Source: a virus
Strand: one strand, 5' to 3'
IMG/VR virus record: IMGVR_UViG_3300009639_000001
Location: 1-61,813 of that record
Length of the DNA stretch: 61,813 nt
Shown here: one piece after another, positions 6,815 through 41,937 of the stretch
Position numbering within the stretch: position 1 is the first letter of the stretch
How the letters are laid out: each line of letters opens with the position of its first letter
Notes under the pieces: model-generated
What the model was told of the DNA's origin: nothing
Database searches by the model: none
The model's input: the letters and a program-made list of their open reading frames with translations, nothing else
Position numbers and translations under genes: made by a program

Positions 6815-6826
6815 ATAGTTATCCTC

Positions 6827-19309: not shown

Positions 19310-19902
19310 GATTTTTTATCCCTCACTACGAAGGTAATTGCTTTCCGAAGTTGTCCAGTATCAATTAAGGGATTTGTCATTCCTTCAAGTCCAGTAATTC
19401 CTTGTAAATTTCCAGTATTTTCATAATATCGAACTGCTGCTCTTGCTATTTTTGCAGGTTCTCCACTACCTTTGGCTTGTTTATAAAGTTTTTCAACAAT
19501 CGTTGCTTCTGAATTAGGAGGCCAACCATTTCTAGGATCAGTAAACCAATCCTTAGCAGCATTTGCTCCAATTAATCCTGTTGTCTTTAATTGTGCTTTT
19601 GCTTGTGATTTATTTCCTTCTAAAGCCAATGTTGCAGCTTTAGCAAGTTCTTTTTGTATTTCATCAGAATGGGCTTTTATAGCTGGTTCAATAACTGGAC
19701 GGCGGGGAATTCCGCGAAGTTCTGAGCCATTTGTGTGAATATACATTAATGCTGCATTTGTAATTTTTGCAGTTCCTTTTCTCGACGTTTTTTCTTCTGG
19801 AATTCCTACAAGAACATCGAGCATCATTAGATCATGCATGTCTTTTTTCAGCTTATCTATTCCGGCACCGGAAGAAGATGTTGTAATGGAATTTTGAAGC
19901 AT
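19306..19902 (-). CDS. Head-tail connector / head-completion protein
   Basis: 198 aa, position in the connector block. Confidence 0.4.
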   Translation of the reverse strand: MLQNSITTSSSGAGIDKLKKDMHDLMMLDVLVGIPEEKTSRKGTAKITNAALMYIHTNGSELRGIPRRPVIEPAIKAHSDEIQKELAKAATLALEGNKSQAKAQLKTTGLIGANAAKDWFTDPRNGWPPNSEATIVEKLYKQAKGSGEPAKIARAAVRYYENTGNLQGITGLEGMTNPLIDTGQLRKAITFVVRDKKS

Positions 19903-19920
19903 GATATTAACCTCCCAATT

Positions 19921-20457
19921 TCACCACACGTACATCCCCGATTTTCCTATTATTTTAGCGATTGATGCAAGTTGAATTCCAAATGTCGTGGCTTTCCAAA
20001 ATCCCCATCCCGGCAAGTCTCCAGTAATGCTGCCGACATCATAACCCACGGATACATCACCAACGCTTTTGGATGACTTGGGGAATTGGGCACCTGCATT
20101 AGCTACTACTTGGCCTAATGTTTTATTCATTCCTGCCTGTGTTTCCAGATATAAAGTGTAAAAATGGCCAGTAAATAAAGCCATCCCATACTTCCATTTA
20201 CTCTGCCATCGGTTTTGGATAATGCAGGAATTGGCCATTTCTATGAACATGCTGATAATTTCTTGATAATTTTCATTTATTTCCGGTCCGAATTGTGGAA
20301 ATATATTCAAAAAATCCGATACTTCAAATGGCGGATTAGTCCCATAACCAACATTCCCCGCAGTTTCTCTGATTTGTGCAACCAGAGCCTGTATTGATTG
20401 CCCATATGGACCTACGCTGTCAGATAGTCCAAACGCAAAATTACCGCCATCTATCAT
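19921..20457 (-). CDS. Head-tail connector protein (DUF4054-like position)
   Basis: 178 aa, first connector gene after the head genes. Confidence 0.4.
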   Translation of the reverse strand: MIDGGNFAFGLSDSVGPYGQSIQALVAQIRETAGNVGYGTNPPFEVSDFLNIFPQFGPEINENYQEIISMFIEMANSCIIQNRWQSKWKYGMALFTGHFYTLYLETQAGMNKTLGQVVANAGAQFPKSSKSVGDVSVGYDVGSITGDLPGWGFWKATTFGIQLASIAKIIGKSGMYVW

Positions 20458-20929: not shown

Positions 20930-21757
20930 TTATTTTGATCTGCTTAGATTAATAGTATTTGGTAATGTTGGGCTATATTGAGCAGTAGTTGTTATTGCTT
21001 TTTCAAAATCCCATCCACGCTGATAAATTCTTTGCCGCAATTGTCCATAAGACATACCTACTTTTTCTGCCCATTCTGGCAATGTATGGGTTTCACCTTC
21101 ATAAGTATAAAATTTTGAATTTCTTTTATTATTATTTTGGATTTTTTGATTAACCCAACGACAATTACCAGGTTCATAATTGCCATTGTTATCAATTCGA
21201 TCTAAGGAAATTCTTTCTGCACCTTCTGCTGGGTCCCCTAAATCAGCATAAAAATTATCAAAATCTAACCATCTTTCACATATTGTAATTCCACGACCAC
21301 CATAATAACTATAATATTTATTATTTGGATTTAAACAACGATCTTTAACATGATTCCAAGTATTATATATTTTGCTATCGTGCATACCGTGTTTAAACTG
21401 CGCTTTAGCGGCACGTTCTTTTTGAAAGCATCCACAACTTTGCGCATTGCCTTTTTTTAATGATGCAGGCAGTATCCATTTATAATTACCGCATTTACAA
21501 AGACAAAGCCATTTTGATTTTTCAGGACTATATTCTATTGCTGTTAATCTACCAAAAATTTGATTTGTTAAATCTACTACTCGTAAACAGCCACAACTTT
21601 TTGTATTTCCAGCTTTTAAATGCGCACGTTTAACTATTATAGAATTTCCACATTCGCATTTACATAACCAAAATTCTGGGCCTAAATCTGGCTCATGTTC
21701 AATCACTATTAATTTCCCAAATACTTGTCCTGTTAAATCCAATATCGGTCTTGGCAT
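20930..21757 (-). CDS. HNH-type homing endonuclease with duplicated Cys-rich modules
   Basis: Two DLTGQ.FG.L...W.C.C.CGN...SCGC modules; C-terminal SLDRIDNNGNYEPGNCRWV..Q.N (HNH-like). Free-standing between the capsid and connector genes. Confidence 0.7.
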   Translation of the reverse strand: MPRPILDLTGQVFGKLIVIEHEPDLGPEFWLCKCECGNSIIVKRAHLKAGNTKSCGCLRVVDLTNQIFGRLTAIEYSPEKSKWLCLCKCGNYKWILPASLKKGNAQSCGCFQKERAAKAQFKHGMHDSKIYNTWNHVKDRCLNPNNKYYSYYGGRGITICERWLDFDNFYADLGDPAEGAERISLDRIDNNGNYEPGNCRWVNQKIQNNNKRNSKFYTYEGETHTLPEWAEKVGMSYGQLRQRIYQRGWDFEKAITTTAQYSPTLPNTINLSRSK

Positions 21758-21883: not shown

Positions 21884-22945
21884 TTAAATACCGTCTATAT
21901 ATTGCCCGGTTTGTGTATATAATATTTTAACTTGCGAGAATTGACTAGCGAATAATGTTTCGTACGACGCACTTTGGACTACCGGTGCCGTCATCACGCG
22001 CGATAGAGGCACACATAGGTCCATGTTTAAACGATTTTCTGCTTTTACATATACAACCATACGTTGAGTTGCAGGACTCCCAAGTCCAGCACCAATGCAG
22101 AAACGATTTGGGTAGATGTTAAGTTCCCGGCCTTGGTTTACAGCAATGTTATTAGTCAATAGGTAGTTTAAAATGGACTGAGTACCAGCAACAGTCACCG
22201 GCGTATTAACAATATAAGCGTAGTTTGCAGGATCAATCAGCACATGATTTGGCATACCACTCAAATCATACTGCGCATCGGCCCATGCAAGTTCAATTGC
22301 ACCATTCACATCTGACATAATTTCTACAGGGGTTTTATTAACCCATAGTCTAGAAGTAGCCGCAGCATTATAGGCTGCATATTGTTGAGCATATAGAGGA
22401 TTATTAACTATTCCATAGGTATTCGATTTTGCAATACCTAAAAATACATTAATATCCATAATCTTGGCATTATTAAGGCGCAGTCCATCGTCGAGGATCT
22501 GCGTCAAAGAACGGCCAATCTGTTGTAGTTTTAAGGCATCGACTAGGGGAGCACGAAGGATTTCAGAGAAGGTATGAACTTTGAATACGTCTTTTGTAAT
22601 ATTGGCTTGCGATACTGGAATATTAGTAGTTTCAGATCCAATAATAGAATCTTCCACATTGCCGGTCGTCGCATAGTCAACATACACATTGGAAGTCAAA
22701 GTTACCCATCCGCCACCAGGCTTAATATCTATGTCACGAGGTGCATAAATCGCTGTCAATGGTTCGAGTAAGCGAGGATCTTGTTTTTCAAGTTCGCCCA
22801 CTAGGAATGCAAGACCAGTGCCACCACCAGCGTCCATGCCAGGACCATATGCGCCGTCAAGACCTTTTTTAAATACTTGTTTTGTGCGTCCAGCACTCAT
22901 GAGGGAATCCATAACTCCAATATATTTAGGGTTCATTGCGCTCAT
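21884..22945 (-). CDS. Major capsid protein (DUF2184-like)
   Basis: 353 aa downstream of the protease/scaffold gene; recalled family motif LLEPL...RDI..KPGGGW. Confidence 0.7.
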   Translation of the reverse strand: MSAMNPKYIGVMDSLMSAGRTKQVFKKGLDGAYGPGMDAGGGTGLAFLVGELEKQDPRLLEPLTAIYAPRDIDIKPGGGWVTLTSNVYVDYATTGNVEDSIIGSETTNIPVSQANITKDVFKVHTFSEILRAPLVDALKLQQIGRSLTQILDDGLRLNNAKIMDINVFLGIAKSNTYGIVNNPLYAQQYAAYNAAATSRLWVNKTPVEIMSDVNGAIELAWADAQYDLSGMPNHVLIDPANYAYIVNTPVTVAGTQSILNYLLTNNIAVNQGRELNIYPNRFCIGAGLGSPATQRMVVYVKAENRLNMDLCVPLSRVMTAPVVQSASYETLFASQFSQVKILYTQTGQYIDGI

Positions 22946-22965: not shown

Positions 22966-23541
22966 TTAAGGTTTATTTTGAGTTAGAATGGTTAACTCAG
23001 CGATAAAATTGGCATCGACCTTTCCAGTTGTCCACTCACAATTAGTTAATTGAACAGTCGTACTGCCATCAGAAGGAGTCGCACTTGCAGTAAAAGCACC
23101 AACAGATAAAGACGATCCAGCAACAGTAACAATGTAAACATTTCCGCCACAAGTAGGAGCATTAGCTGTCGAATCGCCAATAAATACAGTAGCTGAACCA
23201 ATTTGAAGAATATCAGCAGGAACTGCCGGCTCATATTGGCCGGAAGTACTATTTGCACCATAGGTATAAGTCATTACGTTCTTGACTTCAGCAACGGCAA
23301 TGCCCGCAAAATTAGCATAAATAGCCGAAGAGACACCAGCTCCAGAAGCACCCCATAGAGATACACTATTGTCAGTATTAAGAACTGCAGCAGCTCCAAA
23401 TGGGATTGCTGGCTGAGTTTCTACACCAGAACCATTGAGAATCGATTTTACAAAACGGGCGCCGATTTTGTTCATTGGATTGCGCGAGATTTTACCTGCG
23501 AATCCAAGATTTAAAGAAATACCAATCACTGTTCCCGGCAT
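22966..23541 (-). CDS. Head structural / decoration-like protein
   Basis: 191 aa between the scaffold/protease and major capsid genes. Confidence 0.4.
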   Translation of the reverse strand: MPGTVIGISLNLGFAGKISRNPMNKIGARFVKSILNGSGVETQPAIPFGAAAVLNTDNSVSLWGASGAGVSSAIYANFAGIAVAEVKNVMTYTYGANSTSGQYEPAVPADILQIGSATVFIGDSTANAPTCGGNVYIVTVAGSSLSVGAFTASATPSDGSTTVQLTNCEWTTGKVDANFIAELTILTQNKP

Positions 23542-25079
23542 TATTTATTCACTCCTTGTCTCATTGCTGCTCCGGCTTTATTCCAGGCAGCAACGGCTTT
23601 TTGTGCACGCTCTGACATTGTATCCTGTTGTACACTTGCATCAACTGCGCGATGGCGTTTATTGCTATTGATCTGATTTGCAATATCGCCGTATTTTGTT
23701 CTGTTGCCAACTTGACGAGCGTCTTGAACCGAAGCGACGAATTTTTTGGCAAGTTGATTCCGCAGTTTGGGATCTTCTACTGCAAGGATAGCTTTCTTCA
23801 TATCTTTGACGTGTTTTCTAAATGCAAAATCCGCTGCCTTTTTGTAAAGTTCAGCGGATTCGCCTTCATCATCATCATCGTCATCATCACGAGATTTTTT
23901 TCTACCTCTTTTATCTTTGGCTCCCTGTTCAGCATTCATATATTTTGTATTTTCTTGGCCGAAAGTATTTTCCACATCATCATCATCATCGTCATATCCT
24001 GCATGAGCTGGACCTGACATTTTGCTGCTTGGGCTTTCTTCAACATCTTCATATTTTCTTGCCTGTTGTTCAGGAATTTCTGTTTCATCATCATCCATAG
24101 GAGGACGTGATTTCATTTCATTTTCAAGACCAGCGAAATCATCTTCAGCTCCTTGGCCTTGTTGCTGTTCTTCACGGCTTTCAAGTTGTTCAATTCGTGA
24201 TAGAATTTGATTGATTTTATCGCACAAATCGCTCATTACTTCCGTACTTCCGCCAGCATCATCATCGTCATCATCATCTCTGACTCGACGATCATCTCTA
24301 ATCATGCGGTCATCATCTCGTGCCCGATAATCATCATCACTACCTGGAGTTTTAGAGAAAAGTGCTTTATTTTGTTCGTCTTCTCTCATTGCCTCCATTG
24401 CATGGGCGATTTCTTCAGGATCAGCATCTTGAGCAAAATGTTTTAAGCCCATTGCTGCTAATAGCCTTTTGGACATTTTCATCCGTTTCTTACCTCCTGT
24501 TTTCTCTTTAATCTGCATAATGGTATCTTCTGGAACATCATCGACAAATTTATCAGGTTTTTTATCCTGAATTGCTGCATGTGGACCGGCACGACCATTT
24601 TGGACAACTGCTATATGATTGCCTATAATATCCTTTTGCTCATATTTCCCGTCACCTAACGGAACCCATAAGCAATCATAACCACATGAAATCTCACGTT
24701 TCATTTTGTTTAATACTTCCTCTTTGAGCAGAAGATCCATAATATATAAATCACCCACTAAAAAATCACCGTCACGTCTGACATCTTGAATATGACCTTT
24801 TTCAGCCATAGAGACAGTATCAATCGTAAGATTTTCATGTGGATGAGTATTAGTTACAGGTTTTCCCTCAAATGAAGATACTGTTTTTTTATTAAAAACT
24901 TCTTCAGGACTACGGAAAACTTTACAAGGTCCTGATTCTTGAAATATCGCCGGAAGTTCATGGCCTTGATATTCCATCCAGCCGATTCTACCCACAGGTA
25001 CGTTTTTACAAATTATATATCCTTCGGGAGTTTCAATAATATTTTCTGATATTTTGTCGCCGTAGTAACTTCGAGCCAA
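23541..25079 (-). CDS. Prohead protease/scaffold fusion (DUF2213-like N-terminus) with extreme poly-Asp tracts
   Basis: TTG start after AGGAGGTGA; N-terminal PEGYIICKNVPVGRIGWMEY; several D6-D8 runs; helical C-terminus. Confidence 0.6.
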   Translation of the reverse strand: MARSYYGDKISENIIETPEGYIICKNVPVGRIGWMEYQGHELPAIFQESGPCKVFRSPEEVFNKKTVSSFEGKPVTNTHPHENLTIDTVSMAEKGHIQDVRRDGDFLVGDLYIMDLLLKEEVLNKMKREISCGYDCLWVPLGDGKYEQKDIIGNHIAVVQNGRAGPHAAIQDKKPDKFVDDVPEDTIMQIKEKTGGKKRMKMSKRLLAAMGLKHFAQDADPEEIAHAMEAMREDEQNKALFSKTPGSDDDYRARDDDRMIRDDRRVRDDDDDDDAGGSTEVMSDLCDKINQILSRIEQLESREEQQQGQGAEDDFAGLENEMKSRPPMDDDETEIPEQQARKYEDVEESPSSKMSGPAHAGYDDDDDDVENTFGQENTKYMNAEQGAKDKRGRKKSRDDDDDDDEGESAELYKKAADFAFRKHVKDMKKAILAVEDPKLRNQLAKKFVASVQDARQVGNRTKYGDIANQINSNKRHRAVDASVQQDTMSERAQKAVAAWNKAGAAMRQGVNK

Positions 25080-25124
25080 ATCATCACCTCCTTTCAGGCA
25101 TAAAAAATAGCGCATCTTTGCGCT

Positions 25125-25898
25125 TTAAGATGGCCAAATATATCCAGCTCTATAATTTTGTAAAATTTGTGCACTAGTAAGAGCGATATTATAAACACGA
25201 AAAGAATATACATTTGCTGCAATAGTACCATAGGAACTATCCCATGGAGATGCATTTATATAATATTGTTTATAACCACTCTGGGTTGCAGTGTAAGTAT
25301 CAGTATGATTCGCTGTAATTTGTGTGCCATTAATATAAAGATCACAAGTTGAATTATTATTAATTCGAATAATAAAATGGTTGATAGTGCTCCATGTTCC
25401 ACTAACAGTATATTCTGTGTGATATCCTACTCCAATAACAAATAATCCTACTGTAAATGAACTGGAAGTTAAAGTAAATCCAAATCCACCTTCTGTATAT
25501 TCAGATGTATTTGGTAAAAAGCCAGCAGCAGCAGAAGCATTTGAACATGAACACCAAATATCATAAGTTAATGGTGCAGTATAAGGCATAGTTCCGCCGG
25601 CTAATGTTAAATAATTAGTATTATTCGCTGCCATAGCAAGATAATAAGCAGCACCAGCAGATGCCCATCCACTTGATGTTGTATAACTAAATCCAGTAAG
25701 CGGGAAATTATTATTATTACCGCTTAAATCATACCAAGTTCCTTTATTAACTCCAATATTTGAATTTGGCGTATTTCCTGTAGCCCTTGCAGCTTCTAAA
25801 TCTAACACTAAGCCAGCTACGGAATGTTGGGAATGAGATCCTGCACCAACATAATTAAGAGTCTTCTTTTTTCTTACTCCATCAGGTAAAATCAACAT
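25125..25898 (-). CDS. LamG/concanavalin-like domain protein
   Basis: GTWYDLSGNNNNF...LYINGTQ pattern typical of Laminin_G_3-type jelly rolls. Confidence 0.45.
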   Translation of the reverse strand: MLILPDGVRKKKTLNYVGAGSHSQHSVAGLVLDLEAARATGNTPNSNIGVNKGTWYDLSGNNNNFPLTGFSYTTSSGWASAGAAYYLAMAANNTNYLTLAGGTMPYTAPLTYDIWCSCSNASAAAGFLPNTSEYTEGGFGFTLTSSSFTVGLFVIGVGYHTEYTVSGTWSTINHFIIRINNNSTCDLYINGTQITANHTDTYTATQSGYKQYYINASPWDSSYGTIAANVYSFRVYNIALTSAQILQNYRAGYIWPS

Positions 25899-25906
25899 AA
25901 TATCAC

Positions 25907-27916
25907 CTAATCCAACAAATAGCCTTTGACTATTATTTCAATAACTTCGCTAGCTATTGGCGTGTAAGCTGCTTGTACAATTATTGCAGGATATAAATCC
26001 CCACTAGCATCTAATACAGCATTTCGCACCATTTCATCTTTACGAAGCATATAAGCATTAGACGCTTGACTAACAATATTATTAATACTATCTAATGTTA
26101 CAGCGCAATTGCTTGCCAATACAGACAACGTAGGATTCCATGCTGTATAATCAGTAACGGTTTGAGATGAAGGATTATTAACATTCATCAAATGCACATT
26201 AAATCCGGGAACTGTTCCACTTCCATTGGTTGATATAAAAACAATACTATTGATTTGTACTCTACGACTGGCATATGATCCACCAAATGACAACGTAGGC
26301 AATGTAGTTGCAGCACTTGCATTTACAATCTCATTGGCAACATATGCAGGAGTACTTGCTGATCTTGTTATCGATACACTTACTTCAAATTCAGTAACAT
26401 TCATAGGAACTTGGTTCGTTGCAGTTACGGCAGCACTCGCAACATCAATATTAGCTGTAACTGTACCTGACACGGGTTGAGTTGTCGGGAAATTCAGAAC
26501 CTCTACAACCGGTGTTGCTGAAAAGTTAGTAACATAAACTGCATTTGATGTTCCTGGAGTAGATTGATCAATGTAAACCATTTGATCTAATGGAAAATTT
26601 AATACTGTTACAACTGGTGTAGATGGGAAATTGCTAACAGTAACTGTTCCACTTATCGATTGAGTCAATGGGAAATTCAAAACTTCAACAACTGGTGTCG
26701 CTGGAAAATTATTTACATATACGCCATTAGTTGTTCCCGGAGTGGATTGATCAATATCAATTACTCCAATAATTGCTGATCCAGCTGATAAATTAACAGT
26801 TCCTCCAATAGTTTGTGTTGATGGAAAATTATTTACATTTACTGAGCCTGTAATCCCAACAGATCCAGTAATACCCACGTTACCACTAATTGGTTGAGTT
26901 GTCGGAAAATTATTTACTGCCACTGTTCCAGATACATTTTGCGTAGTTGGAAAATTATCAACTGTTACTATCGGCGTTGATGGAAAATTTAATACTGTTA
27001 CAACTGGAGTTGCTGGAAAATTACTTATATCTACTGTTCCTGACACAGGTTGAGTTGCCGGGAAATTTGATACTGCTATTGTACCTGATACTGGTTGAGT
27101 AGCAGGAAAATTATTAACTGCTACTGTTCCGCTTACAGGTTGAGTATCAGGGAAATTAATAACTTCCACTACTGGAGTAGCTGAAAGATTAGTTACATAA
27201 ACAGCATTACTCGTTTGAGGCGTTGCTTGACTAATAGAAACAATACTTGGAATACCACCAGAAATAGAAACAGTTCCTGAAACCGGTTGGACTGCTGGAA
27301 AGTTTAAAACTTCAACTACCGGAGTAGCTGGAAAATTGTTCACCGATACTGTTTGAACGGAAGGGAAATTTTCGACGATTACTACAGGAGTTGCAGGAAA
27401 GTTACTAACAGCAACAGTCCCACTAACAGGTTGAGTAGTAGGGAAATTAATAACTTCAACAACAGGAGTCGCCGGGAAATTAGTCACATAAACAGCGTCC
27501 GTTGTACCTGGAGTAGCTTGACTAATGGCAACTGTACCACTAACGGCCTGCACAGTTGGGAAATTAAGCACTGTTACATTCGTACCTGCAGAAGAAGATG
27601 CAATATCTCCAGCTGGAGGAGGTGAAATATAGGTTTCCTGCGTAACATTACGCCAAGTTGTACTTAAATAAACTACTGTTGCTGTATTACTATAAACATC
27701 AATTTTTGTAATTATATCACCGGTATTATATTGTGGTTTTGTTGCTATGGCTAAATAATTTGTTGTTAATAGAGTATATGTTGTTATTATTATCGATCCA
27801 CCGGCAGTATTTGTTTCGATAGCTTCTAATACTGCAACCATATCTACAGGAGTACTGCCTGCATTTAACCATTCCCCAGTCAGTGGGGGGAAATTTTCAA
27901 TGTTATATTCGCCCAT
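25907..27916 (-). CDS. NFP-repeat protein, long form (about 30 NFP motifs)
   Basis: 11-13-aa units V.NFP(A/T/S)T(Q/P).V(SGT). N-terminus MGEYNIENFPPLTGEWLNA shared with 27930-28658. Confidence 0.6.
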   Translation of the reverse strand: MGEYNIENFPPLTGEWLNAGSTPVDMVAVLEAIETNTAGGSIIITTYTLLTTNYLAIATKPQYNTGDIITKIDVYSNTATVVYLSTTWRNVTQETYISPPPAGDIASSSAGTNVTVLNFPTVQAVSGTVAISQATPGTTDAVYVTNFPATPVVEVINFPTTQPVSGTVAVSNFPATPVVIVENFPSVQTVSVNNFPATPVVEVLNFPAVQPVSGTVSISGGIPSIVSISQATPQTSNAVYVTNLSATPVVEVINFPDTQPVSGTVAVNNFPATQPVSGTIAVSNFPATQPVSGTVDISNFPATPVVTVLNFPSTPIVTVDNFPTTQNVSGTVAVNNFPTTQPISGNVGITGSVGITGSVNVNNFPSTQTIGGTVNLSAGSAIIGVIDIDQSTPGTTNGVYVNNFPATPVVEVLNFPLTQSISGTVTVSNFPSTPVVTVLNFPLDQMVYIDQSTPGTSNAVYVTNFSATPVVEVLNFPTTQPVSGTVTANIDVASAAVTATNQVPMNVTEFEVSVSITRSASTPAYVANEIVNASAATTLPTLSFGGSYASRRVQINSIVFISTNGSGTVPGFNVHLMNVNNPSSQTVTDYTAWNPTLSVLASNCAVTLDSINNIVSQASNAYMLRKDEMVRNAVLDASGDLYPAIIVQAAYTPIASEVIEIIVKGYLLD

Positions 27917-27929
27917 TTATAACCCCCCT

Positions 27930-28658
27930 TTATTCCTCATACCATGTATAGCGAGCTGCAAAATATCCAGAAAAAACATTCGTCCCATTTACATCAGGCG
28001 TATAAAGAAATGCATAAGTAGTATTAAGTTTTAAAATCAATTCATAGGTTGGATCATAGGTAAGTCCCAAACTAGTACTTGCGCCCGAAGGGATTATAAT
28101 AGTTCCTGTAGGTTTACCGCCTATTGGGGTAGATGCAGATGGATAAAATAAATTACTTGATATATTACTGGAATTTAAATTCAAATTTACAGGATTTGCT
28201 GGACTTCCTAATGTTATAGATGCAGGCGATATCAATAATTCTGAAGTTATTGATGCAAGACTTATAAAAGTACCTGTATTAGTATATATATTGGTTTCAT
28301 TGAAATAAACTCTAGGTTTTAAATGAGTAATTTTATTACCTGTTAAAAATCCTACAACAGCAACATAGTTATAATATAAAAGATTACTAACAGTAACATT
28401 AAAAATATATTCATATACTGTTCCTTCATTAGTCTTAACAATATTCATATCTATAGTCGGTATAAATACATCAGTGCCATTGACTTTCAACAACAATTGA
28501 TTACTCTGACTATCTGTTATTGATACTGCATTGCTAATCCCTGGGGTTGATTGACTAATAACAAGATTAAACCCGGTTGTCATGTCAATCGGCGTACTTT
28601 CCGCATTTAACCATATCCCCGAAATCGGGGGGAAATTTTCAATATTGTATTCGCCCAT
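27930..28658 (-). CDS. NFP-family protein with a jelly-roll-like C-terminal domain
   Basis: Shared N-terminus MGEYNIENFPPISGIWLNA. C-terminal HLKPR.Y...IIIP.G.STS.G..Y...YEL.L..NT.Y.F.Y...W.YE shared with 28671-29654. Confidence 0.55.
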   Translation of the reverse strand: MGEYNIENFPPISGIWLNAESTPIDMTTGFNLVISQSTPGISNAVSITDSQSNQLLLKVNGTDVFIPTIDMNIVKTNEGTVYEYIFNVTVSNLLYYNYVAVVGFLTGNKITHLKPRVYFNETNIYTNTGTFISLASITSELLISPASITLGSPANPVNLNLNSSNISSNLFYPSASTPIGGKPTGTIIIPSGASTSLGLTYDPTYELILKLNTTYAFLYTPDVNGTNVFSGYFAARYTWYEE

Positions 28659-28670
28659 AAAAAAACCCCC

Positions 28671-29654
28671 TTACGAGGATGTTACTTCATACCAAGCGAT
28701 TCGGTACGCCAATGATCCGGTTATATCACTACTATTAAAATTTTGATAACTAAATACATATTGAGTATTTGGAGCTAATACTAATTCATAATCAGAAATA
28801 TATGAATTTCCTATGCTTGTCGAATTACCCGGAGGAATAATTATTGTACTTAATGTTGTTCCTCCTACAACTACAGTTGTTGAAGGATATACATTTGTTA
28901 AGGGAGTCGATGCAATAACTCTATTTAAATTATAAGGAGATGCAGCTGCTCCTAAAGTAACTACTGATGGATCTTCTACTAAAGTCCCTGCAATTGACAC
29001 AGCAACAGGCGTTGAAGAAAGTGTCGTCACTGCACTATAATAAATTCTAGGTTTTAAATGGGCTTGTTTTGATCCGGTAACAAATCCAGTTAATGCAATA
29101 TTTCCGCCAGGGGACACATTTGTTATAGTAATGTTATTACCATATTCAAACATCCATCCATCATGAATCATTATATGTGTGTCATCAATTCCAGGCGAAA
29201 GCACTTCAGGTCCATCGACTTCAAGTGTTAAATGTTGACCATTTGCATCAGTTAAAACAATACCATTTGTGGTTATAGGTGTTGTTTGACTAATGGATAT
29301 AGATTGAGTTATAGGGAAATTAAGAACTTCTACAGTAGGCGTAGAAGTAAAATCAGTCACATATACAGCATTGGTCGTTCCAGGTGTAGCTTGACTAATA
29401 GAAACTATTTGCGTTGCAGGAAAGTTAAGCACTTCTACGACAGGGGTTGCAGGGAAATTACTAACAGTTACTGAACCTGATATCGTTTGACTTGTTGGAA
29501 AATTTAAAACTTCGACAACAGGAGTTGAAGGTATATTCGTTACATATACTGCGTTAGTTACTGTTGGTGTTGCTTGGCTAATACTAACTGAACCAATATT
29601 ATTATTGGATGATAAAATCGTTACTGCTCCAACGTTAAAATCTGGATGACCCAT
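28671..29654 (-). CDS. NFP-repeat protein with a jelly-roll-like C-terminal domain
   Basis: Six NFP/ISQATP units, then a C-terminal domain paralogous to 27930-28658. Confidence 0.55.
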   Translation of the reverse strand: MGHPDFNVGAVTILSSNNNIGSVSISQATPTVTNAVYVTNIPSTPVVEVLNFPTSQTISGSVTVSNFPATPVVEVLNFPATQIVSISQATPGTTNAVYVTDFTSTPTVEVLNFPITQSISISQTTPITTNGIVLTDANGQHLTLEVDGPEVLSPGIDDTHIMIHDGWMFEYGNNITITNVSPGGNIALTGFVTGSKQAHLKPRIYYSAVTTLSSTPVAVSIAGTLVEDPSVVTLGAAASPYNLNRVIASTPLTNVYPSTTVVVGGTTLSTIIIPPGNSTSIGNSYISDYELVLAPNTQYVFSYQNFNSSDITGSLAYRIAWYEVTSS

Positions 29655-29666
29655 TTAATAACCCCC

Positions 29667-30068
29667 TTAAATAACGCATGGAGTAAATACGAAAGTTGCA
29701 TTACAAGTACCGGAAAGCGTTGGTACAAATTTAATCCATTTTGATCTAATTCCCGATATTTCAACAGAATTTGGTGTACTAGCTACAATCGGAAGAATAA
29801 TATCAGGATATAAAACTGGAGTTGATTGAGATATTGGACCTGTATACATGAGATGATATGGCTCTGTTCCAGTTTCAGAACTATAAACAGCAATTGAAAA
29901 TTGACCCGAACCACTATTAACAGTTACATCCAAACTTCCTCCAGTAAAACCAACCATTTCAACTGCAGTTGAATTTGCTTCTGTAACGCTCGCGGAAATG
30001 GCACCACCAAATAGTGTTATTGCTGGACCTTTTTGAATAGGAAAATTATTAACATTTAAATCAGCCAT
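29667..30068 (-). CDS. Small NFP-family member
   Basis: MADLNVNNFPIQKG N-terminus; first gene of the paralog block. Confidence 0.45.
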   Translation of the reverse strand: MADLNVNNFPIQKGPAITLFGGAISASVTEANSTAVEMVGFTGGSLDVTVNSGSGQFSIAVYSSETGTEPYHLMYTGPISQSTPVLYPDIILPIVASTPNSVEISGIRSKWIKFVPTLSGTCNATFVFTPCVI

Positions 30069-30102
30069 TGTGATTAATCACTCCTTATATTTTTAAATAA
30101 AA

Positions 30103-30291
30103 TTAACACCCGTATTTGCTACTAAGATCCTGCACCCTGCGCGTTAAATCACTTAAAGCATCTTTTGATCTGGATTTACCTGCTTTACTGTAAGCAATAG
30201 CGGCCGCTTGTTTGGGATCTTTACCTGACCTAATTTCTGTCGCTATATTTTCACCAATAACTTTCTGACTTGATCCCGATTTAAGTGGCAT
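30103..30291 (-). CDS. Small basic protein, unknown function
   Basis: 62-aa ORF starting 5 nt after the upstream stop. Confidence 0.4.
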
Positions 30292-30295
30292 ATTA

Positions 30296-30985
30296 TCACT
30301 CCTTCACCATTTTATGTATCGGTCTTGAGTCCAAATTCACAATCATTCGGTATCCTTTGACCTTAGCTTGCCTACACCAGAAAATATCCTCACCTTGTCG
30401 ATCTGGTCCATATCGAATACCATCTTCAATCGCTTTTCGAGGTATCATATAACAGGCACCTATTACACCGGCATTATACAATCCTTTTGGTGCATACCCT
30501 TGCGGATGAACAAATACATTCCCATATTCCACCATAAAATTACAGGCTGTTCGTCCGTCAATTTTTTGGTTTGGCAGGTTGCAAACTGCAGCCCCGACAA
30601 TCGTCTTTGAATCTGCATAAGGAAGTAACTCATTAATTATATTTGCATGTACAATAATATCCGAATCGATTGATAACAAATAATCCCCTTTAGTATCAAG
30701 AAACAATTCTAAAAATCGATTTCTGACATTGGCTAAATGAGCATATTCATTCTTGCCATATTCAGTTCGTTCGCTGCCAGGAGTTGTTGACGGCCAAGCA
30801 CTATATAAATTATATATAGATGCCGATTTATGATTGCGAAGTTGTATTAATGTGTCATCAGTTGAATCATTTTCATACATTAAGTATTCTTTGTTGTGAT
30901 AATCAATAGCTTCTAGAGCTTTTAAGTATTCCGGCAAAATCCAGCCTCTATTCTTGATTGGGCAACCGATTACAATTCTCGACAT
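30296..30985 (-). CDS. Glycosyltransferase (GT2-like nucleotide-diphospho-sugar transferase fold)
   Basis: YENDSTDDT and SIDSDI (DxD-like) motifs. Confidence 0.55.
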
Positions 30986-31658
30986 ATGCTATCTCCTGAT
31001 TTAACCATTGGTTGCATTTAACCCACATGTAATCTTGTGATTGCCCAATGGTAATATTATGATCCCGTATATCAGTTGTTAAATAAGCAAGTCCAAATCC
31101 ACCATATAACTGAGGATAAAATAAATCACCTGTCACAAAATCTTTTTCTACAAGATGAACGAAAGGATTGCTATTCCAATTTGCATGATCTATAGCTAAT
31201 CTTGTTTCTGGATGCCAAGAATCATGCATTATAAGAATAGTATCTTTTAATGGTTTATATGCAAGAAAATTGTTAATATCGCGTAAAACGGCGTAATAGC
31301 TATGATCTGCATCAATAAGAACAAAACTAATATCATTATCTTTTAATTCATTTATAAGCCAAGGTAATTTTTCAGCAGAATCACCTGTTATCCATTCAAC
31401 ATTGTTATAATTGTTTTTATTTGCAATATTATTGTGATTTATGTCAATGGAATAAACTTTATTAAAATTTTCTGCCAGATAACGAGTTGAACCACCACAA
31501 TAACTGCCGACTTCAATTGCAATACTATTTTTTCGTATTTTATCCAATAGATATAAAAAGCTCGTGCGTTCTGCACGAGACATTTGCCAACAAATACTGT
31601 CATCAAATATTCTTTTAATCAAACTAATTGCCTCCCTGTAGTATCCCTTCCCATCCAA
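30948..31658 (-). CDS. Class I SAM-dependent methyltransferase (CmcI/TylF-like, sugar O-methyltransferase candidate)
   Basis: AIEVGSYCGGST (motif I), VYSIDIN, LIDADHSY. Confidence 0.55.
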   Translation of the reverse strand: MDGKGYYREAISLIKRIFDDSICWQMSRAERTSFLYLLDKIRKNSIAIEVGSYCGGSTRYLAENFNKVYSIDINHNNIANKNNYNNVEWITGDSAEKLPWLINELKDNDISFVLIDADHSYYAVLRDINNFLAYKPLKDTILIMHDSWHPETRLAIDHANWNSNPFVHLVEKDFVTGDLFYPQLYGGFGLAYLTTDIRDHNITIGQSQDYMWVKCNQWLNQEIAYVENCNRLPNQE

Positions 31659-32266
31659 GATCCAATAAAATGATGTATTGCATATGTATCTTCTGTCATT
31701 ATTGGTTTAAATTGCGGATGATCAAATCCTCCAAAATATGTAATTGGAAATATAACAACTCCATCTTTCAAATATGTAAATCCGTAATTCTGTCGTTCTA
31801 TAAAAGGCTTTGATAATGCTGTAATAATACGAGTATTAGGTACAAGATAATCAAGATCAAACTTTGCAGTTTCATAATATTTAAATAAAAGTTTAATCCA
31901 AGGATGATCAGGTTCAGCTCCTATTACGGCGGAAAGAAATAATTCATCTGTTTCATGAGATGTAAAAGCTCTATATTGTAGAAATCTATCAAAAGATTTT
32001 ATTATTTGTACATCAGTATCTAGATAAATACCTCCATATTTTTCCAAACACCATAGCCTAATATAATCAGTAACATAAGCCCATTTTTTTGATCTATAAG
32101 CATCTTTTACATAATTACAACAATTTATGTCAAAATTATCTTCAGTCCATTCGATAATTTCATAATCTGGCATAAATTGATGCCAAGATGCAATACATTT
32201 TTTAAAAAATTCCGGTTTTTCACTTTTCCCCAGCCAACAATAATGTATTATTTTTGGAATTGACAT
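31619..32266 (-). CDS. Glycosyltransferase, GT32-like (Gly_transf_sug), paralog 2
   Basis: MSIPKIIHYCWLGK..., YLDTDV DxD motif; very similar to 33016-33678 along its whole length. Confidence 0.65.
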   Translation of the reverse strand: MSIPKIIHYCWLGKSEKPEFFKKCIASWHQFMPDYEIIEWTEDNFDINCCNYVKDAYRSKKWAYVTDYIRLWCLEKYGGIYLDTDVQIIKSFDRFLQYRAFTSHETDELFLSAVIGAEPDHPWIKLLFKYYETAKFDLDYLVPNTRIITALSKPFIERQNYGFTYLKDGVVIFPITYFGGFDHPQFKPIMTEDTYAIHHFIGSWMGRDTTGRQLV

Positions 32267-33005
32267 ATTCATATTCCCACTTTCTCCAAATAGTATGCAT
32301 TTGTGATTGTATCCCGCACCATCCTTTTTCTGCTAAATGTCCAGCATAATGGGCAATTTTTATTTGATCAACTGGTGGAATACCTGTGGACATTGATGAA
32401 TTATATATATTACTAGCAAGTTTTATATTACATGTTCTGTTCATTATGTCTTGATCGTAACAGCTTGTTGGTTGTGTATTTATTAACTTTATCCAAGTAT
32501 CCGATAAATTTTTCTCTCTAATCTGATCTAGATTCATTAATAAAACACCAGCATTTATGTAAAGATCCCCATGTTTTTTCCCTATGGATTGAAGCTGAAT
32601 ATCTAATATACCTATATCCCTAACTCCAACAATATCTATATTTTTAATATCTTGATGATAAAACTCAGAAAGATCACCATTGACAATAGTATCCGCATCC
32701 AAATATAAAATTCGATCTTCTGGAATGACCTTAGGTATTAATAACCTATATAAAGTATAACGAGTAAATCGGCCTATATTTGATGGTGTTCGTATTGTGT
32801 CATTATATAAGGCTTCTAGATCCAAAAAAATGACTTCAATACCATATTTAAAATAAAGGTCAGAGCAGAAATCCGAATTAGGTTCACCAGCTGCATCTGA
32901 TATTAAATAAATATTTGTCACATCTGAATTTGTTTTAATAAGTGCGAAGATTTCAATATAAATGTACTTTAGCCAATCAGGACTATAAATAATACAAATA
33001 TTCAT
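32220..33005 (-). CDS. Glycosyltransferase family 8-like
   Basis: RILYLDADTIV (DxD) and ...INAGVLLMNL..., typical of GT8 retaining transferases. Confidence 0.65.
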   Translation of the reverse strand: MNICIIYSPDWLKYIYIEIFALIKTNSDVTNIYLISDAAGEPNSDFCSDLYFKYGIEVIFLDLEALYNDTIRTPSNIGRFTRYTLYRLLIPKVIPEDRILYLDADTIVNGDLSEFYHQDIKNIDIVGVRDIGILDIQLQSIGKKHGDLYINAGVLLMNLDQIREKNLSDTWIKLINTQPTSCYDQDIMNRTCNIKLASNIYNSSMSTGIPPVDQIKIAHYAGHLAEKGWCGIQSQMHTIWRKWEYEYVNSKNNTLLLAGEK

Positions 33006-33015
33006 AATCTCTACC

Positions 33016-33678
33016 TCAAATTAATTTTATTTTTGATATATCTCTTTCATACAATGTTCCTGCAAGCCATGTACCAGCAAAGTGATGAATTGAATAGGTA
33101 TCTTCTGTTACAATTGGTTTAAACTGTTGATGATCATAGCCTGCAAAATATGTAATGGGGAATATTACAACGCCATCTTTTAAATATGTAAATCCATAGT
33201 TTTGTCTTTCAATAAACGGTCTTGAAAGAGCAGTTACTATACGAGTATTAGGAATTAATCGATATGGATCAAAAACGGCATTTTCATAATATCTCATGAT
33301 GTATTGAATCCAAGGATGTCCTGGTTCTGATCCCATAACTGCTGCTAATGTTAATTCATTTGTTTCTGAACCAGTGAAAGCTCGATATTGTAGAAACCTG
33401 TCTAATGGTTTGATTATTTGGACATCAGCATCAATATAAATTCCACCGCATTGTTCAATAACTTTCAATCTAGCAACATCGGTAACATACGCCCATTTCT
33501 TAGTTTCATATGCTTTTTTAACGTAAGGACAACAATTTACATCAAAATTTGTTTCGTTCCATTCAATTATTTCGAATTCTGGCATAAAATTACGCCAAGA
33601 TTCAATACATTTTAATATTAAATCTGGTTTTTTGTTCCCTCCGAACCAACAATAATGTAATTTTTTTGGAATTGACAT
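33016..33678 (-). CDS. Glycosyltransferase, GT32-like, paralog 1
   Basis: MSIPKKLHYCWFGG..., YIDADV DxD motif. Confidence 0.65.
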   Translation of the reverse strand: MSIPKKLHYCWFGGNKKPDLILKCIESWRNFMPEFEIIEWNETNFDVNCCPYVKKAYETKKWAYVTDVARLKVIEQCGGIYIDADVQIIKPLDRFLQYRAFTGSETNELTLAAVMGSEPGHPWIQYIMRYYENAVFDPYRLIPNTRIVTALSRPFIERQNYGFTYLKDGVVIFPITYFAGYDHQQFKPIVTEDTYSIHHFAGTWLAGTLYERDISKIKLI

Positions 33679-33767: not shown

Positions 33768-34589
33768 TCATGATATTAATCTCTCAAAATCTTTTCTGTT
33801 AATCCATGAAATTTTTCCATTGCTATAGATCTTATGTGGCCATTTCACATAATCTGGATCGACTAAAGGCTCCGCATAACACCTGCAATTAAATATCTCA
33901 CCAGCCTGATAATGTCCATATTGATATTTTTTACGTGCCAACTGTTCAGGACTTGGGGGATCTGTCCATTTTATTAACACACCGTCCATATTTCGATGGG
34001 ATTGCCTGACACGTCCGTCCTCTGAAGTTCGCCAAACATACCATCTTAATCCTAGCTCATAACTTTGTGCCCGTGTTAGGGCTGTGCTGGCCTTAGACAC
34101 TTCAGTCCGAGCAATCAAGTTCGCCCTGGACTTAGTAATATTCGGCATCCATACTTTGAGATCGTCAACAATATCTTCGGCCCTACGACCTTTGAGAGCT
34201 TCTTGCTGAATATGATGCGTCATCTTTATCGAAATATCAATTGGAGTGCTGCGGATCAGTGAAGCGTTGTAATCGATCTGTGCTCGAATCAAATTCCCCA
34301 TTGGTCCCTGCATCTGCAACTTAAGTGCCTGGTAAATGTCCCGGCCCCTGGTGCTGATGCTGGCGGCCTGTCGCCAGTTACGTGCGTTGTCCACGCGAGT
34401 CGCTGTTATCATACGGCCTGCAATCCGCATTGATAGATTATAGAACAGCTCAGAATGAATAAACTCCTCGATCTGTCGTGCCGGTTCGAGAAAATCGAAC
34501 TGTCGGAATACACGGTCGAGGAGTTTTTTGATTTGCCGGGAATATTCAGATTCGATTCGGAGGATAGGATGCCAGTCGCGGTATTTCAT
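33768..34589 (-). CDS. Head morphogenesis protein (Mu F / SPP1 gp7-like)
   Basis: ARTEVSKA..., RVRQSHRNMDG..., NCRCY C-terminal motif characteristic of the family. Confidence 0.8.
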   Translation of the reverse strand: MKYRDWHPILRIESEYSRQIKKLLDRVFRQFDFLEPARQIEEFIHSELFYNLSMRIAGRMITATRVDNARNWRQAASISTRGRDIYQALKLQMQGPMGNLIRAQIDYNASLIRSTPIDISIKMTHHIQQEALKGRRAEDIVDDLKVWMPNITKSRANLIARTEVSKASTALTRAQSYELGLRWYVWRTSEDGRVRQSHRNMDGVLIKWTDPPSPEQLARKKYQYGHYQAGEIFNCRCYAEPLVDPDYVKWPHKIYSNGKISWINRKDFERLIS

Positions 34590-35478: not shown

Positions 35479-37281
35479 TTATTTGGCCTGTCTCATCTTC
35501 AGCAAGCCCGTTTCTATTCTTGGAGCCATCCCGCCACCTGCTGCCGGGAACTGTCGGTTCCACAATCCATCAGCAATCTTATTCAATCTATCGTCATACA
35601 TCGCAAGTCGCTTCGTCAATGAATTTCCTTCTGATGTTCTGGTTGGCAGTGAAAACTCTGTTGGCTCATTCAAACTTTGATCAATAGGTGGTTTTTCGCC
35701 TTCTCGCGCAATATTTCCTCTTTTTTTCATAAATCCTATATTGCCCGGATATTGATCCTGTTTTTGTCCTGATATTGAAAAATTTTCATGTTGCTCTTGG
35801 TATTGGTCCTGTTGTGGTTTCATCTGTTGCCGGAAGGTTGGCAGATGTTCACCTGGCATACCTCCAGCGCCGGGCATACCGCCCATCTCATCCACTTGCT
35901 GCAAATTATTATCTGCTGCTTCGATGTCCTCATCCGTGATGCTAGTAAACATGTTTGTGGTGAACGACAGTTCATGCAACTCTGACAAAGCCATCCGCTG
36001 AGTAATAACACCAGTTGTATAAGCAGCGAGGATGGATTGCGATTTTTTGCCGACAATATCCGCTTCGCGCTCTTCGGTTGGCGATTGGACTGGGTTGAAT
36101 TTGAAATCAAGATCATCCGGCACATAGCCGAATTCAGACATGAACATGATGGGTAATAACTTATTTAACTTAGGCCGAAGTACTGTTTCTTGTTGCAAGG
36201 CAATCATATCGTAATAATTTTGCAAATCGCTCTCGCCAGTTGAATTCATACCTGCGGGGGACCTACCAAATAATTTTGTAACTGGTATATCCGAAGCTCC
36301 AGCAATATCCAGCATGAAACTCTCATAGATACTATCCAGACCTGAAAAACTGTACTGTAATGCTGATACTTCTTCCTCTTTGCCAATCATCATCATACCG
36401 TTGTTGTTCCGCATCTGGTTCGCAGCTGACTTGGCATTGTAAAACTGCTGCTGAATCATAGGATCATTAAGGGCTAGGAGCTGTTCTAAGCCTTCTATTT
36501 TATTAACAAGAATATTTGCTTGGAAGACCAGCGAAGCTATATTCCATGAGGTATTATCACGTTTAACCAATTCATCGTATACGTGCTCCACTTCGCTAGC
36601 TCCCCAGTGCACCTCCGCAAGGTCTTCCCAAAAAGGCAGTTTTCTCCCAATACATCTCAAAATTCGACTATGATGTACACGGGTCAATAATCGTTCAGTG
36701 CCAATATCGCGTATTTCATACGTATCCGGCAAACCAAACTCTGGATCATTAATGTCTGCTACTAAAGTAATATCAGGAAAAACTCCCGACCATCTATCTA
36801 CGGGCATCAATCCTTTAAAAGCATGAGGCATTATTGTATCTAGATCAAGTGATTCATCTAATATTTCTTCATGACCTTCGATCATGATAACAACGGCAGC
36901 GCCTCCATATAAGCGACCCCATTGCAAACCTTCTAATAATTTTTCTTTAACGAGTGTTCTTTGAGTTAATTTATTGATCCGATCTATTGCTTGTGGTGCT
37001 AGTTCGGCGGTAACATCAATCCAATTTTTCACCATATCTTCGGGAATCATATTGATAATTTTCTTAATAATCCAGTGAGAACGATAGAGGCTGTTCATTA
37101 AATTGTAATCTCTACTGAGTCTGCTGAGCGGATAATCGGTCATTTGTAAAAGAGAAGGAGTATTAATTCCAGTTCTTGCAAGTGCATTTTGAAAGGCATC
37201 AAATACATTATATTGGCGTGTTTGTTGAGGTTCTTGTATTATTTTTTTATTATTGCGTTTGATCTTTCCCAATATTCTCAC
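35479..37281 (-). CDS. Portal protein (DUF1073-like)
   Basis: 600 aa in the TerL / portal / MuF order; HWGASEVEHVYDEL...; start uncertain (GTG 37281 or TTG 37272). Confidence 0.8.
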   Translation of the reverse strand: MRILGKIKRNNKKIIQEPQQTRQYNVFDAFQNALARTGINTPSLLQMTDYPLSRLSRDYNLMNSLYRSHWIIKKIINMIPEDMVKNWIDVTAELAPQAIDRINKLTQRTLVKEKLLEGLQWGRLYGGAAVVIMIEGHEEILDESLDLDTIMPHAFKGLMPVDRWSGVFPDITLVADINDPEFGLPDTYEIRDIGTERLLTRVHHSRILRCIGRKLPFWEDLAEVHWGASEVEHVYDELVKRDNTSWNIASLVFQANILVNKIEGLEQLLALNDPMIQQQFYNAKSAANQMRNNNGMMMIGKEEEVSALQYSFSGLDSIYESFMLDIAGASDIPVTKLFGRSPAGMNSTGESDLQNYYDMIALQQETVLRPKLNKLLPIMFMSEFGYVPDDLDFKFNPVQSPTEEREADIVGKKSQSILAAYTTGVITQRMALSELHELSFTTNMFTSITDEDIEAADNNLQQVDEMGGMPGAGGMPGEHLPTFRQQMKPQQDQYQEQHENFSISGQKQDQYPGNIGFMKKRGNIAREGEKPPIDQSLNEPTEFSLPTRTSEGNSLTKRLAMYDDRLNKIADGLWNRQFPAAGGGMAPRIETGLLKMRQAK

Positions 37282-41875: not shown

Positions 41876-41908
41876 AATATACCACCTCGGATATCTTGAA
41901 TTTATACA

Positions 41909-41937
41909 TTGACATTCAAACTTGAACATGGTATAAT
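41909..41937 (+). promoter_or_regulatory. Consensus SigA promoter for the plus-strand small-gene operon
   Basis: TTGACA (41909-41914), 17 nt, TATAAT (41932-41937); the spacer contains the palindrome ttcaaacttgaa. Confidence 0.65.

Follow-up and report, generated by a model that had tools for sequence, protein, structure and literature searches.

What are proteins with the build of fibres doing among the head genes of a contractile-tailed phage? The question is raised by positions 25907-30068 of the viral record IMGVR_UViG_3300009639_000001, which was analyzed over its positions 1-61,813 (hereafter the window, all 61,813 nucleotides of it). As an earlier note on this DNA had stated, the region holds four consecutive genes within exactly these limits; all are minus-strand open reading frames (ORFs), here called p133, p327, p242, and p669. 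We consider it rather probable that these genes and the adjoining gene p257, together spanning 25125-30068, form a hypervariable cassette of accessory virion fibres in the head operon, with a shared anchor and exchangeable host-binding tips. What is new is an undescribed shaft repeat in an unusual genomic place; otherwise this is a known type of thing, a phage fibre cassette.

Modular architecture of the cassette proteins

The proteins p669, p242, and p327 are mosaics of four modules: an N-terminal anchor, a shaft of short repeats, a jelly-roll knob, and a domain of the phrog_5335 type (layouts in Table 1). They combine a shared N-terminal peptide and a repeat stalk with two unrelated beta-rich distal domains, and they lie in a lineage-specific, exchangeable block of the head operon. 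The arrangement proposed earlier, an anchor, a repeat stalk, and a swappable distal domain, thus holds in the window and is strengthened by two relatives, L131 and L001, that are treated below. The near-identical N-termini first noticed in two members belong to p669 and p242, which agree at 21 of 26 anchor positions (81%, E 2e-12). The anchor itself carries one Asn-Phe-Pro (NFP) unit. That of p669 is also found in the homologue P0022 and is 65% identical to a 125-amino-acid (aa) protein of L131.

The shaft is made of V-x-N-F-P-x-T-(Q/P) units, 11 and 15 residues long, mixed with ISQATPGTTNAVYV units. We counted 21 exact NFP tripeptides in p669, or 24 with the variants NLS and NFS, spaced mostly by 11 or 15 residues; the first estimate of about 30 NFP motifs was too high, the units of all types totaling approximately 28. 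The NFP units follow the patterns x-V-x-N-F-P-A-T-P-V-V and x-V-x-N-F-P-x-T-Q-P-V-S-G-T-V, and interspersed with them, as had been observed, are four [SD]Q[AS]TPxT[ST][ND][AG]V units, that is, (I/V)(S/D)Q(A/S)TPGT.N.V-Y-V. In p327 there are four NFP units and, by eye, three of the ISQATP type, two of which were caught by the search pattern. Residues 372-483 of p669 and 9-120 of p327 are 64% identical. Single NFP units are present in p242 and p133, at residues 8-10 of both. If the NFP-shaft family is defined by at least three tandem 11- or 15-residue units with the core N-[FL]-P-x-T-[QP] and V-x-V flanks, p669 (21-24 units) and p327 (4) belong to it and p242 and p133 (one each) do not.

Chance is excluded for the NFP motifs of p669, since 21 were observed against 0.19 expected from composition and a maximum of 3 in 2000 shuffles. 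Among the 66 window ORFs of at least 100 aa, only five contain NFP, and these are the adjacent p133, p327, p242, p669, and p257. At the DNA level only two short arrays were detectable (77-78% matches), and the repeats are therefore old rather than a product of recent slippage.

Beyond the shaft, two members had been said to have a common C-terminal domain and the longest a different one, and both statements were borne out. The domain common to p327 and p242 is 38% identical over 208 aa (E 3e-39). Residues 161-324 of p327 match phrog_5335, a family of unknown function, at E 2.9e-12; despite its identity to the p327 domain, p242 did not reach the E 0.01 cut-off against this profile. A single homologue of the domain was found among 5.8 billion clusters (P0022, 44%). 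Relatedness of this domain to the p669 knob was considered and rejected, the profile-profile probability being 0.2.

The knob accounts for the only confident part of the full-length AlphaFold monomer of p669. Modeled by itself (residues 480-669, 16-sequence alignment), it is all-beta with one short helix, at a predicted local distance difference test (pLDDT) score of 85.6 and a predicted template modeling (pTM) score of 0.79, so the structural check suggested earlier did return a confident jelly roll for this part. The N-region scored a pLDDT of approximately 35-40 and the shaft block means mostly below 50 and at most 64. Such low confidence in a monomer model is what an obligate oligomeric fibre would be expected to give, although it is no proof of one. 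A candidate small domain in the N-region, with the motif G-Y-x-x-G-D-I-I, was dropped after phmmer gave no matches; the motif occurs in 2 other proteins.

Foldseek searches of the PDB with the knob returned viral jelly-roll capsid proteins, the PRD1 P5 knob, and Ena3A, all at low template modeling (TM) scores of 0.25-0.38; the P5 match was to 1yq5 (E 4.9e-3, TM 0.32-0.38). Matches in BFVD were far better. They were uncharacterised Caudovirales proteins (TMq 0.6-0.68), among them A0A0K1LMZ2 of Caulobacter phage Seuss (TMt 0.76, root-mean-square deviation 2.4), and they also included giant-virus collagen-repeat and BclB-C-terminal proteins. By sequence the knob is a family of its own. Its members, recovered by a full HMMER scan, are either stand-alone proteins (169-250 aa) or parts of proteins with different stalks; when used by itself in a word-indexed homologue search, the knob had given no match. 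A weak relative of the knob follows the terminase in Caulobacter phage Quill_5.2 (E 6e-3).

The four genes had been taken for a single paralogous family. This stands for p669, p242, and p327 but not for p133, which is not significantly similar to any of the three (best E 0.21) and has in common with them only an N-terminal NFP unit. It starts LNVNNFP, with NFP at the same position as in the anchor, and contains ISQSTP. The same division is seen in the Shine-Dalgarno context TAAGGGGGTT, which is shared by p327, p242, and p669 and not, as claimed, by all four genes. Instead of the serial duplication of whole genes that had been suggested, we see mosaic sharing of modules.

The fifth gene, p257, matches phrog_8510, annotated as a virion structural protein (E 1.5e-7), and also phrog 17347. 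No Pfam family matched it at E<=0.1; a D-x-S-G-N-x-N...L-x-G motif was seen by eye, which makes p257 a candidate lectin-like, LamG-like virion protein. Its residues 61-71 carry NNNNFPLTG, similar to ENFPPLTG of the anchor, and this may simply be the usual LamG-type D-x-S-G-N-x-N-x-x-L-x-G motif.

Distribution of the repeat and knob families

The impression that the repeat belongs to no described family was upheld. None of p669, p242, p327, and p133 had a Pfam match above cut-off, an NCBIfam match, or a sequence match in the PDB. In PHROGs (E<=0.01), p669, p242, and p133 were without a match, and the C-terminal domain of p327 gave the sole one described above. Searches by tblastn of 50,697 GenBank phage records found no match for p669, either distal domain, or p257. 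A match of the consensus repeat in Microcystis phage Mel-JY03 was discarded once its sequence was read, being a different Gly/Ser/Val repeat. A literature search with the repeat strings produced nothing relevant.

Larger sequence collections gave a different picture of the family's distribution, which the earlier note had proposed to map. An HMMER scan of 1.84 billion cluster representatives identified 1600 proteins at E<=1e-3 and 69 at E<=1e-30; the figure of 1600 refers to representative clusters at 50% identity and is a lower bound. With phmmer, E fell to 1e-167. Some matches exceed 2000 residues, most align to residues 250-350 of p669, and the family consensus is V-S-V-S-N-F-P-A-T-Q-P-V-S-G-S. 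A peptide-pattern scan confirmed 246 stretches in IMG/VR, and 44 repeat loci were located in species-representative bacterial or archaeal genome assemblies, mostly metagenome-assembled genomes (MAGs). These loci include Nostoc/Calothrix/Desmonostoc, Acetobacteraceae, Planctomycetota, Myxococcota, Acidobacteriota, Chloroflexota, Saccharibacteria, and Firmicutes, with one on a contig binned as a Nitrososphaeria archaeon. The regions flanking the repeats are very diverse: clustering them for 150 members gave 77 N-terminal and 49 C-terminal clusters, where one C-terminal cluster of 76 members may have been merged via leftover repeats. The repeat defines a large family beyond the curated databases and solved structures; annotating it would give a label to many structural proteins of environmental phages and prophages that now count as 'hypothetical'. 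On a contig binned as a giant-virus MAG (L011, IMGVR GVMAG-M-3300023184-161), a further NFP-repeat protein was observed, 700 aa long and with 16 units.

Both the repeat and the knob families recur in phage structural modules. In a Desmonostoc prophage (L004/L005), whose capsid and cement proteins are of the families seen here, the NFP gene lies between Mu Gp36/Gp37 neck genes and the sheath gene. In L003 it follows an 846-aa tape-measure-like gene and precedes an NlpC/P60 lysin, and in L006 it stands between Portal_Mu and MuF with RmlC, RmlD, epimerase, and methyltransferase genes. A siphovirus encodes a stand-alone knob homologue in its tail-tip module, where the genes run tape measure, Dit, Tal, GH18 protein, XepA-like protein, knob. 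We tallied the three genes upstream and the three downstream of IMG/VR NFP genes (150 ORFs per side). They included portals, terminases, neck proteins, T4 gp15, collagen repeats, sheath, lysozyme, and several 'tail fiber' PHROGs, and one NFP gene had a PRD1_P5_spike_N protein among its three upstream neighbours. No glycosyltransferase was among the neighbour families listed. The tallies are too fragmented to assign the repeat family to one module; it is tied to structural modules, to no single one of them, and not generally to sugar enzymes.

In the L006 contig (6194-7788 and 16391-17703), the N-terminus of the NFP-repeat protein is signal-peptide-like. Around its gene are dTDP-sugar genes (epimerase/dehydratase, RmlC-like, RmlD-like), a methyltransferase gene, and a gene for a K1-lyase_C protein.

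Exchange of the cassette among relatives

Among cultured phages, the one nearest to the window in its capsid protein is Agathobaculum phage AB434P2 (47% identity), which is syntenic with the window for portal, MuF, protease, cement, capsid, neck, and sheath. Its MuF and protease genes are only approximately 730 bp apart. In the window the same interval holds a low-GC (guanine plus cytosine) insertion of about 8.5 kb, which contains the genes of p133, p327, p242, and p669, four glycosyltransferase genes, a methyltransferase gene, and p257, and this whole block is absent from AB434P2. Over 25125-33678 GC is 0.30-0.38, as against 0.40-0.45 for the MuF, protease, cement, and capsid genes.

A closer, uncultured relative, L131 (51.3 kb; major capsid protein 92% identical), has part of the block. 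It keeps GT8, a DXD glycosyltransferase, the methyltransferase, and GT2 at 62-70% aa identity, p62 at 49%, and at the same position a p133 homologue at 52% that likewise starts ...LNVNNFP. Next comes the 125-aa protein mentioned above, which begins with MGEYSINNFPPITGTWL, that is, with the anchor (pattern MGEY...NFPP.TG.W), and continues into a different small domain of 95 residues. It is followed by a 353-aa protein without NFP units. The genes for p327, the p242 distal domain, the p669 shaft and knob, and p257 are absent from L131, and nucleotide homology breaks at window position 30233 and resumes exactly at 25125, the start of the protease. In a further context, L001/L159, a p257-like gene is directly followed by the anchor joined to a p242-type domain. 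The anchor pattern GEY.I.NF.P..G.W retrieved 25 unrelated MGEY... ORFs from IMG/VR and, from JGI metagenomes, only the L001-type contig.

AB434P2, L131, and the window represent three states, in that order: no cassette, enzymes plus anchor with other tips, and enzymes plus NFP fibres. The anchor, like p62, p133, and the enzyme cluster, is stable within the lineage, and all that lies distal to it is exchangeable. A head operon can thus host an exchange cassette of the receptor-binding type, which bears on host-range prediction and phage engineering.

Two observations on the L131 genes stand apart from this. The anchor-domain gene and the 353-aa gene (6398-7833 of L131) have overlapping stop and start codons. 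By eye, the N-terminus of the 353-aa protein had the look of a pectate-lyase/pectin-lyase-type beta-helix, which the databases did not bear out: there was no Pfam match, and the best PDB match was a beta-helix xylosidase at E 0.27.

Genomic setting and site of attachment

The cassette genes, all on the minus strand, are part of one tightly packed operon (Table 1), in which the intergenic gaps measure 34 nucleotides (nt) ahead of p133 and then 8-13 nt as far as the protease gene. They had been placed between the MuF-like and protease/scaffold genes. The assignment to the head module is right, but the cassette follows MuF only after five sugar-modifying enzyme genes and a 62-aa gene, and p257 separates p669 from the protease. 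Downstream of the capsid gene are neck genes, sheath, two tube paralogs, tape measure, baseplate hub and wedge, and two tail-fibre-like genes. With this complete tail module of its own the phage is a myovirus; it is of the E217/XM1 type, with a contractile tail, and probably Firmicutes- or gut-associated.

Table 1. Cassette modules, genes of the head operon, and other features of the window (positions as in the window; aa, amino acids; residues, res)
Feature	Position	Strand	Remarks
p669	25907-27916	-	669 aa; anchor res 1-26; N-region res 27-113; NFP shaft res 114-487; jelly-roll knob res ~505-669
p669 anchor	27839-27916	-	MGEYNIENFPPLTGEWLNAGSTPVDM; 26 aa
p669 shaft	26456-27577	-	20 NFP + 3 NLS/NFS units + 4 (I/V)(S/D)Q(A/S)TPGT.N.V units
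p669 C-terminal jelly-roll knob domain	25910-26404	-	
p242	27930-28658	-	242 aa; anchor res 1-26; one ISQSTPGISNAV unit; phrog_5335-type distal domain res 34-241
p327	28671-29654	-	327 aa; no anchor; short shaft res 9-135; phrog_5335-type distal domain res ~150-327
p133	29667-30068	-	133 aa
p257	25125-25898	-	257 aa; last gene of the variable cassette
p62	30103-30291	-	phrog_2423; small conserved gene between enzyme cluster and fibre cassette
GT2	30296-30985	-	
Sugar-O-methyltransferase-like gene	30948-31658	-	Methyltransf_24; weak rhamnosyl-O-methyltransferase/CmcI similarity
DXD glycosyltransferase	31619-32272	-	
GT8	32220-33005	-	
DXD glycosyltransferase	33016-33678	-	
MuF-like head morphogenesis gene	33768-34589	-	Conserved flank upstream of the insertion
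Portal	35479-37281	-	
GIY-YIG endonuclease	37250-38059	-	GIY-YIG/NUMOD3; between terminase and portal
Terminase (large)	39920-41929	-	669 aa
Prohead protease/scaffold (DUF2213)	23541-25115	-	Conserved flank downstream of the insertion
XM1-gp53-like cement protein	22966-23541	-	
Major capsid protein	21884-22945	-	
HNH endonuclease	20930-21757	-	Between capsid and neck genes
Neck genes	19306-20457		
Tail-tube-like genes	16183-16635 and 16653-17120	-	Tandem paralogs, both phrog_280
GIY-YIG endonuclease	11778-12602	+	GIY-YIG/NUMOD3; opposite strand among tail/baseplate genes
Tail-fibre-like genes	6827-7645 and 5027-6814		
ParB_N-like protein (weak)	43167-44156	-	
SNF2/DEAD-type helicase	52012-54213	-	Interrupted by intein (Intein_splicing PF14890, res 117-379; PT-HINT)
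ParA-type ATPase	60563-61381	+	

In the mechanism that we propose, p669 and p242 would dock to one common site through their shared 26-residue N-terminal peptide, and p669 would extend a long stalk of 11/15-residue NFP units that would probably fold only as an oligomer, most likely a trimer. The tips would be the two unrelated beta-rich domains, the jelly-roll knob in p669 and the phrog_5335-type domain in p242 and p327, binding ligands on the host surface or in the environment, probably glycans. Partners in the same assembly would be p133, which is conserved, and the putatively lectin-like p257. Swapping of distal modules between related phages would alter binding specificity. From the position of the genes, the fibres may attach to the capsid or to the portal-proximal neck and serve a first, reversible adsorption step apart from the baseplate fibres.

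The attachment site is the least certain part of this reading. It is gene order that favours placement on the capsid or neck, the capsid being a tentative first choice; a tail site is rather unlikely, and the neck taken by itself slightly more so. This bears on what is the strongest alternative, namely that the cassette encodes ordinary side tail fibres, or neck or collar whiskers, whose coding in the head operon is incidental and which attach to baseplate or neck, not to the capsid. Genes of the NFP and knob families do occupy tail-tip or neck positions in other phages, several 'tail fiber' families appear among the upstream neighbours tallied above, and tail receptor-binding complexes (CBA120, G7C, K1-5) typically combine a common N-terminal anchor with tips that vary. 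On the other hand, the tail module of the window (approximately 5-18 kb) is complete with two fibre-like genes at 5027-7645, which supports the view, taken from the start, that the cassette belongs to the head and not the tail module. The cassette lies between MuF and protease; the neck genes are about 8 kb downstream of it and the baseplate genes 18 kb away, and no domain was found to be shared between the cassette proteins and any other window protein, those of the tail module included. We regard this alternative as possible, though improbable.

The adjacent glycosyltransferase cluster

Between MuF and p62, inside the structural operon, Pfam and NCBIfam identified a cluster of sugar-modifying enzymes (30296-33678, minus strand, GC 0.30-0.37): GT2, GT8, two paralogous DXD 'Gly_transf_sug/Caps_synth' glycosyltransferases, and the sugar-O-methyltransferase-like gene. 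By analogy, the cluster most plausibly glycosylates some virion component; glycosyltransferases encoded in mycobacteriophage structural operons reportedly glycosylate virion proteins. Its conservation next to the cassette makes virion glycosylation directly testable in this phage.

The fibre proteins themselves could be the substrates, with the 8.5-kb insertion as one unit for a glycosylated fibre coat, either a shield or a means of adhesion to mucus or glycans. This would be compatible with accessory virion fibres. Four glycosyltransferases and the sugar-O-methyltransferase-like gene stand directly upstream in the same operon, the mycobacteriophage precedent points the same way, the cassette proteins consist of 22-26% Ser+Thr, and L006 pairs an NFP protein with its sugar genes. 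L131, however, keeps the enzymes without NFP-repeat proteins, so the NFP stalk is not an obligatory substrate and the enzyme cluster is independent of the repeats. The lack of any glycosyltransferase among the families listed in the IMG/VR neighbour tally argues against a general linkage, and the Thr of NFPxT is also conserved in members without a nearby glycosyltransferase, which fits a structural role. We therefore judge it unlikely that the fibres are the substrates. N-glycosylation at the NFP Asn was considered and rejected, N-F-P being no N-x-S/T sequon; what is left is a loose resemblance to chlorovirus NIPG sites.

Weighing the fibre cassette reading

Several points weigh against accessory virion fibres of the head. 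Members of the repeat and knob families sit in tail modules elsewhere (L003 and the siphovirus tail tip), which leaves room for a tail location here. The knob resembles solved fibre knobs at fold-class level only, as the TM values to PRD1 P5 show. The membership of p133 rests on one motif and synteny. Signal peptides are present in some family members, which are encoded on contigs of 54-632 kb (P0007, P0012, P0107), and the repeat is therefore not exclusive to virions.

The signal peptides also speak for proteins of the moron type that are no part of the virion and are expressed late or by a prophage (for example adhesins of the cell surface, factors of superinfection exclusion, or MuF-linked packaged cargo), an idea to which the low GC of the insertion, its absence from a relative, and the cargo or toxin modules known from MuF neighbourhoods lend something, but which is very unlikely because the cassette proteins of the window have no visible signal peptide or membrane segment, their genes are packed tightly with strong Shine-Dalgarno sites, the anchor/shaft/knob architecture and the PHROG match of p257 fit structural proteins, and a 370-residue repeat stalk would be implausible as capsid-internal cargo.

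A bolder version of the fibre cassette can be put forward as speculation that we think unlikely to hold as a whole. The NFP repeat would be a new oligomeric shaft fold that phages and prophages in many bacterial phyla employ and that no cultured phage or solved structure contains; the cassette would encode capsid fibres that are glycosylated by the phage and whose tips are exchanged in the manner of tail receptor-binding proteins; and the head would be a second programmable adsorption organ with its own glycan-synthesis cluster.

Other features of the window

Several further genes were noted. The SNF2/DEAD-type helicase gene is interrupted by an intein, and three free-standing homing endonuclease genes lie within the structural region, one of them (GIY-YIG/NUMOD3) on the opposite strand; in L131 a GIY-YIG gene is found elsewhere, between sheath and tube. 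The large terminase extends for about 190 residues beyond its Terminase_6C domain, with a locally high GC of 0.46. The two tail-tube-like genes correspond to Phage_Tube_PhiTE in L131. The ParA-type ATPase and the weak ParB_N-like protein, with no integrase among the window proteins scanned, hint at a plasmid-prophage lifestyle.

Comparison with known systems

The enzyme cluster resembles the virion glycosylation clusters of mycobacteriophages in that glycosyltransferase genes stand in the structural operon beside virion protein genes; here there is also a methyltransferase resembling rhamnosyl O-methyltransferase/CmcI. It differs from these, and from the glycosylated fibril and capsid systems of giant viruses, in that the enzymes are kept in a relative without NFP proteins.

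With the multi-protein receptor-binding systems of phages CBA120 (TSP1-4), G7C (gp63.1/gp66), and SP6/K1-5 (adaptor and tailspikes), the cassette has in common adjacent genes, a conserved N-terminal docking peptide, unrelated distal domains, and the exchange of distal parts between close relatives with flanks conserved. In those systems the genes are part of the tail module and the proteins dock to the baseplate or the tail tip, whereas the cassette is located between MuF and the prohead protease; none of its proteins had a detectable depolymerase domain.

The protein layout recalls the trimeric fibres of other viruses (adenovirus fibre, PRD1 P5 spike, reovirus sigma1), which likewise have a short conserved N-terminal anchor, a repeat shaft, and a C-terminal jelly-roll knob, with shaft repeats of about 15 residues in which Pro/Gly is conserved and hydrophobic residues alternate. 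The differences are that there is no sequence similarity, that the knob TM is only 0.32-0.38, and that the virus here is a tailed myovirus. By sequence, the cassette proteins belong neither to these fibre families nor to the anchored tailspike systems.

In location, the cassette is like the accessory, dispensable-looking genes in the head or neck modules that encode phi29 gp8.5, T4 Hoc and fibritin, SPP1 gp12, the head fibres of crAss001, and the capsid fibres of phage 7-7-1; the closest precedents for the location are those of phi29 gp8.5, crAss001, and 7-7-1. There is no homology to these, and the cassette proteins have no Ig-like, collagen, HDPD, or coiled-coil signatures, nor any profile match to HDPD/gpD, the Ig-like domains of Hoc, the collagen-like SPP1 gp12, or the XM1 gp53 cement protein. 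The proteins behind the capsid fibres of some myoviruses are still unidentified (PMC12796354). Among them are the capsid-vertex fibres of Agrobacterium phage 7-7-1, which serve first attachment and for which the authors invoke an adenovirus-fibre model (PMC12796354). The cassette described here offers a candidate for such head-module-encoded fibres of a myovirus.

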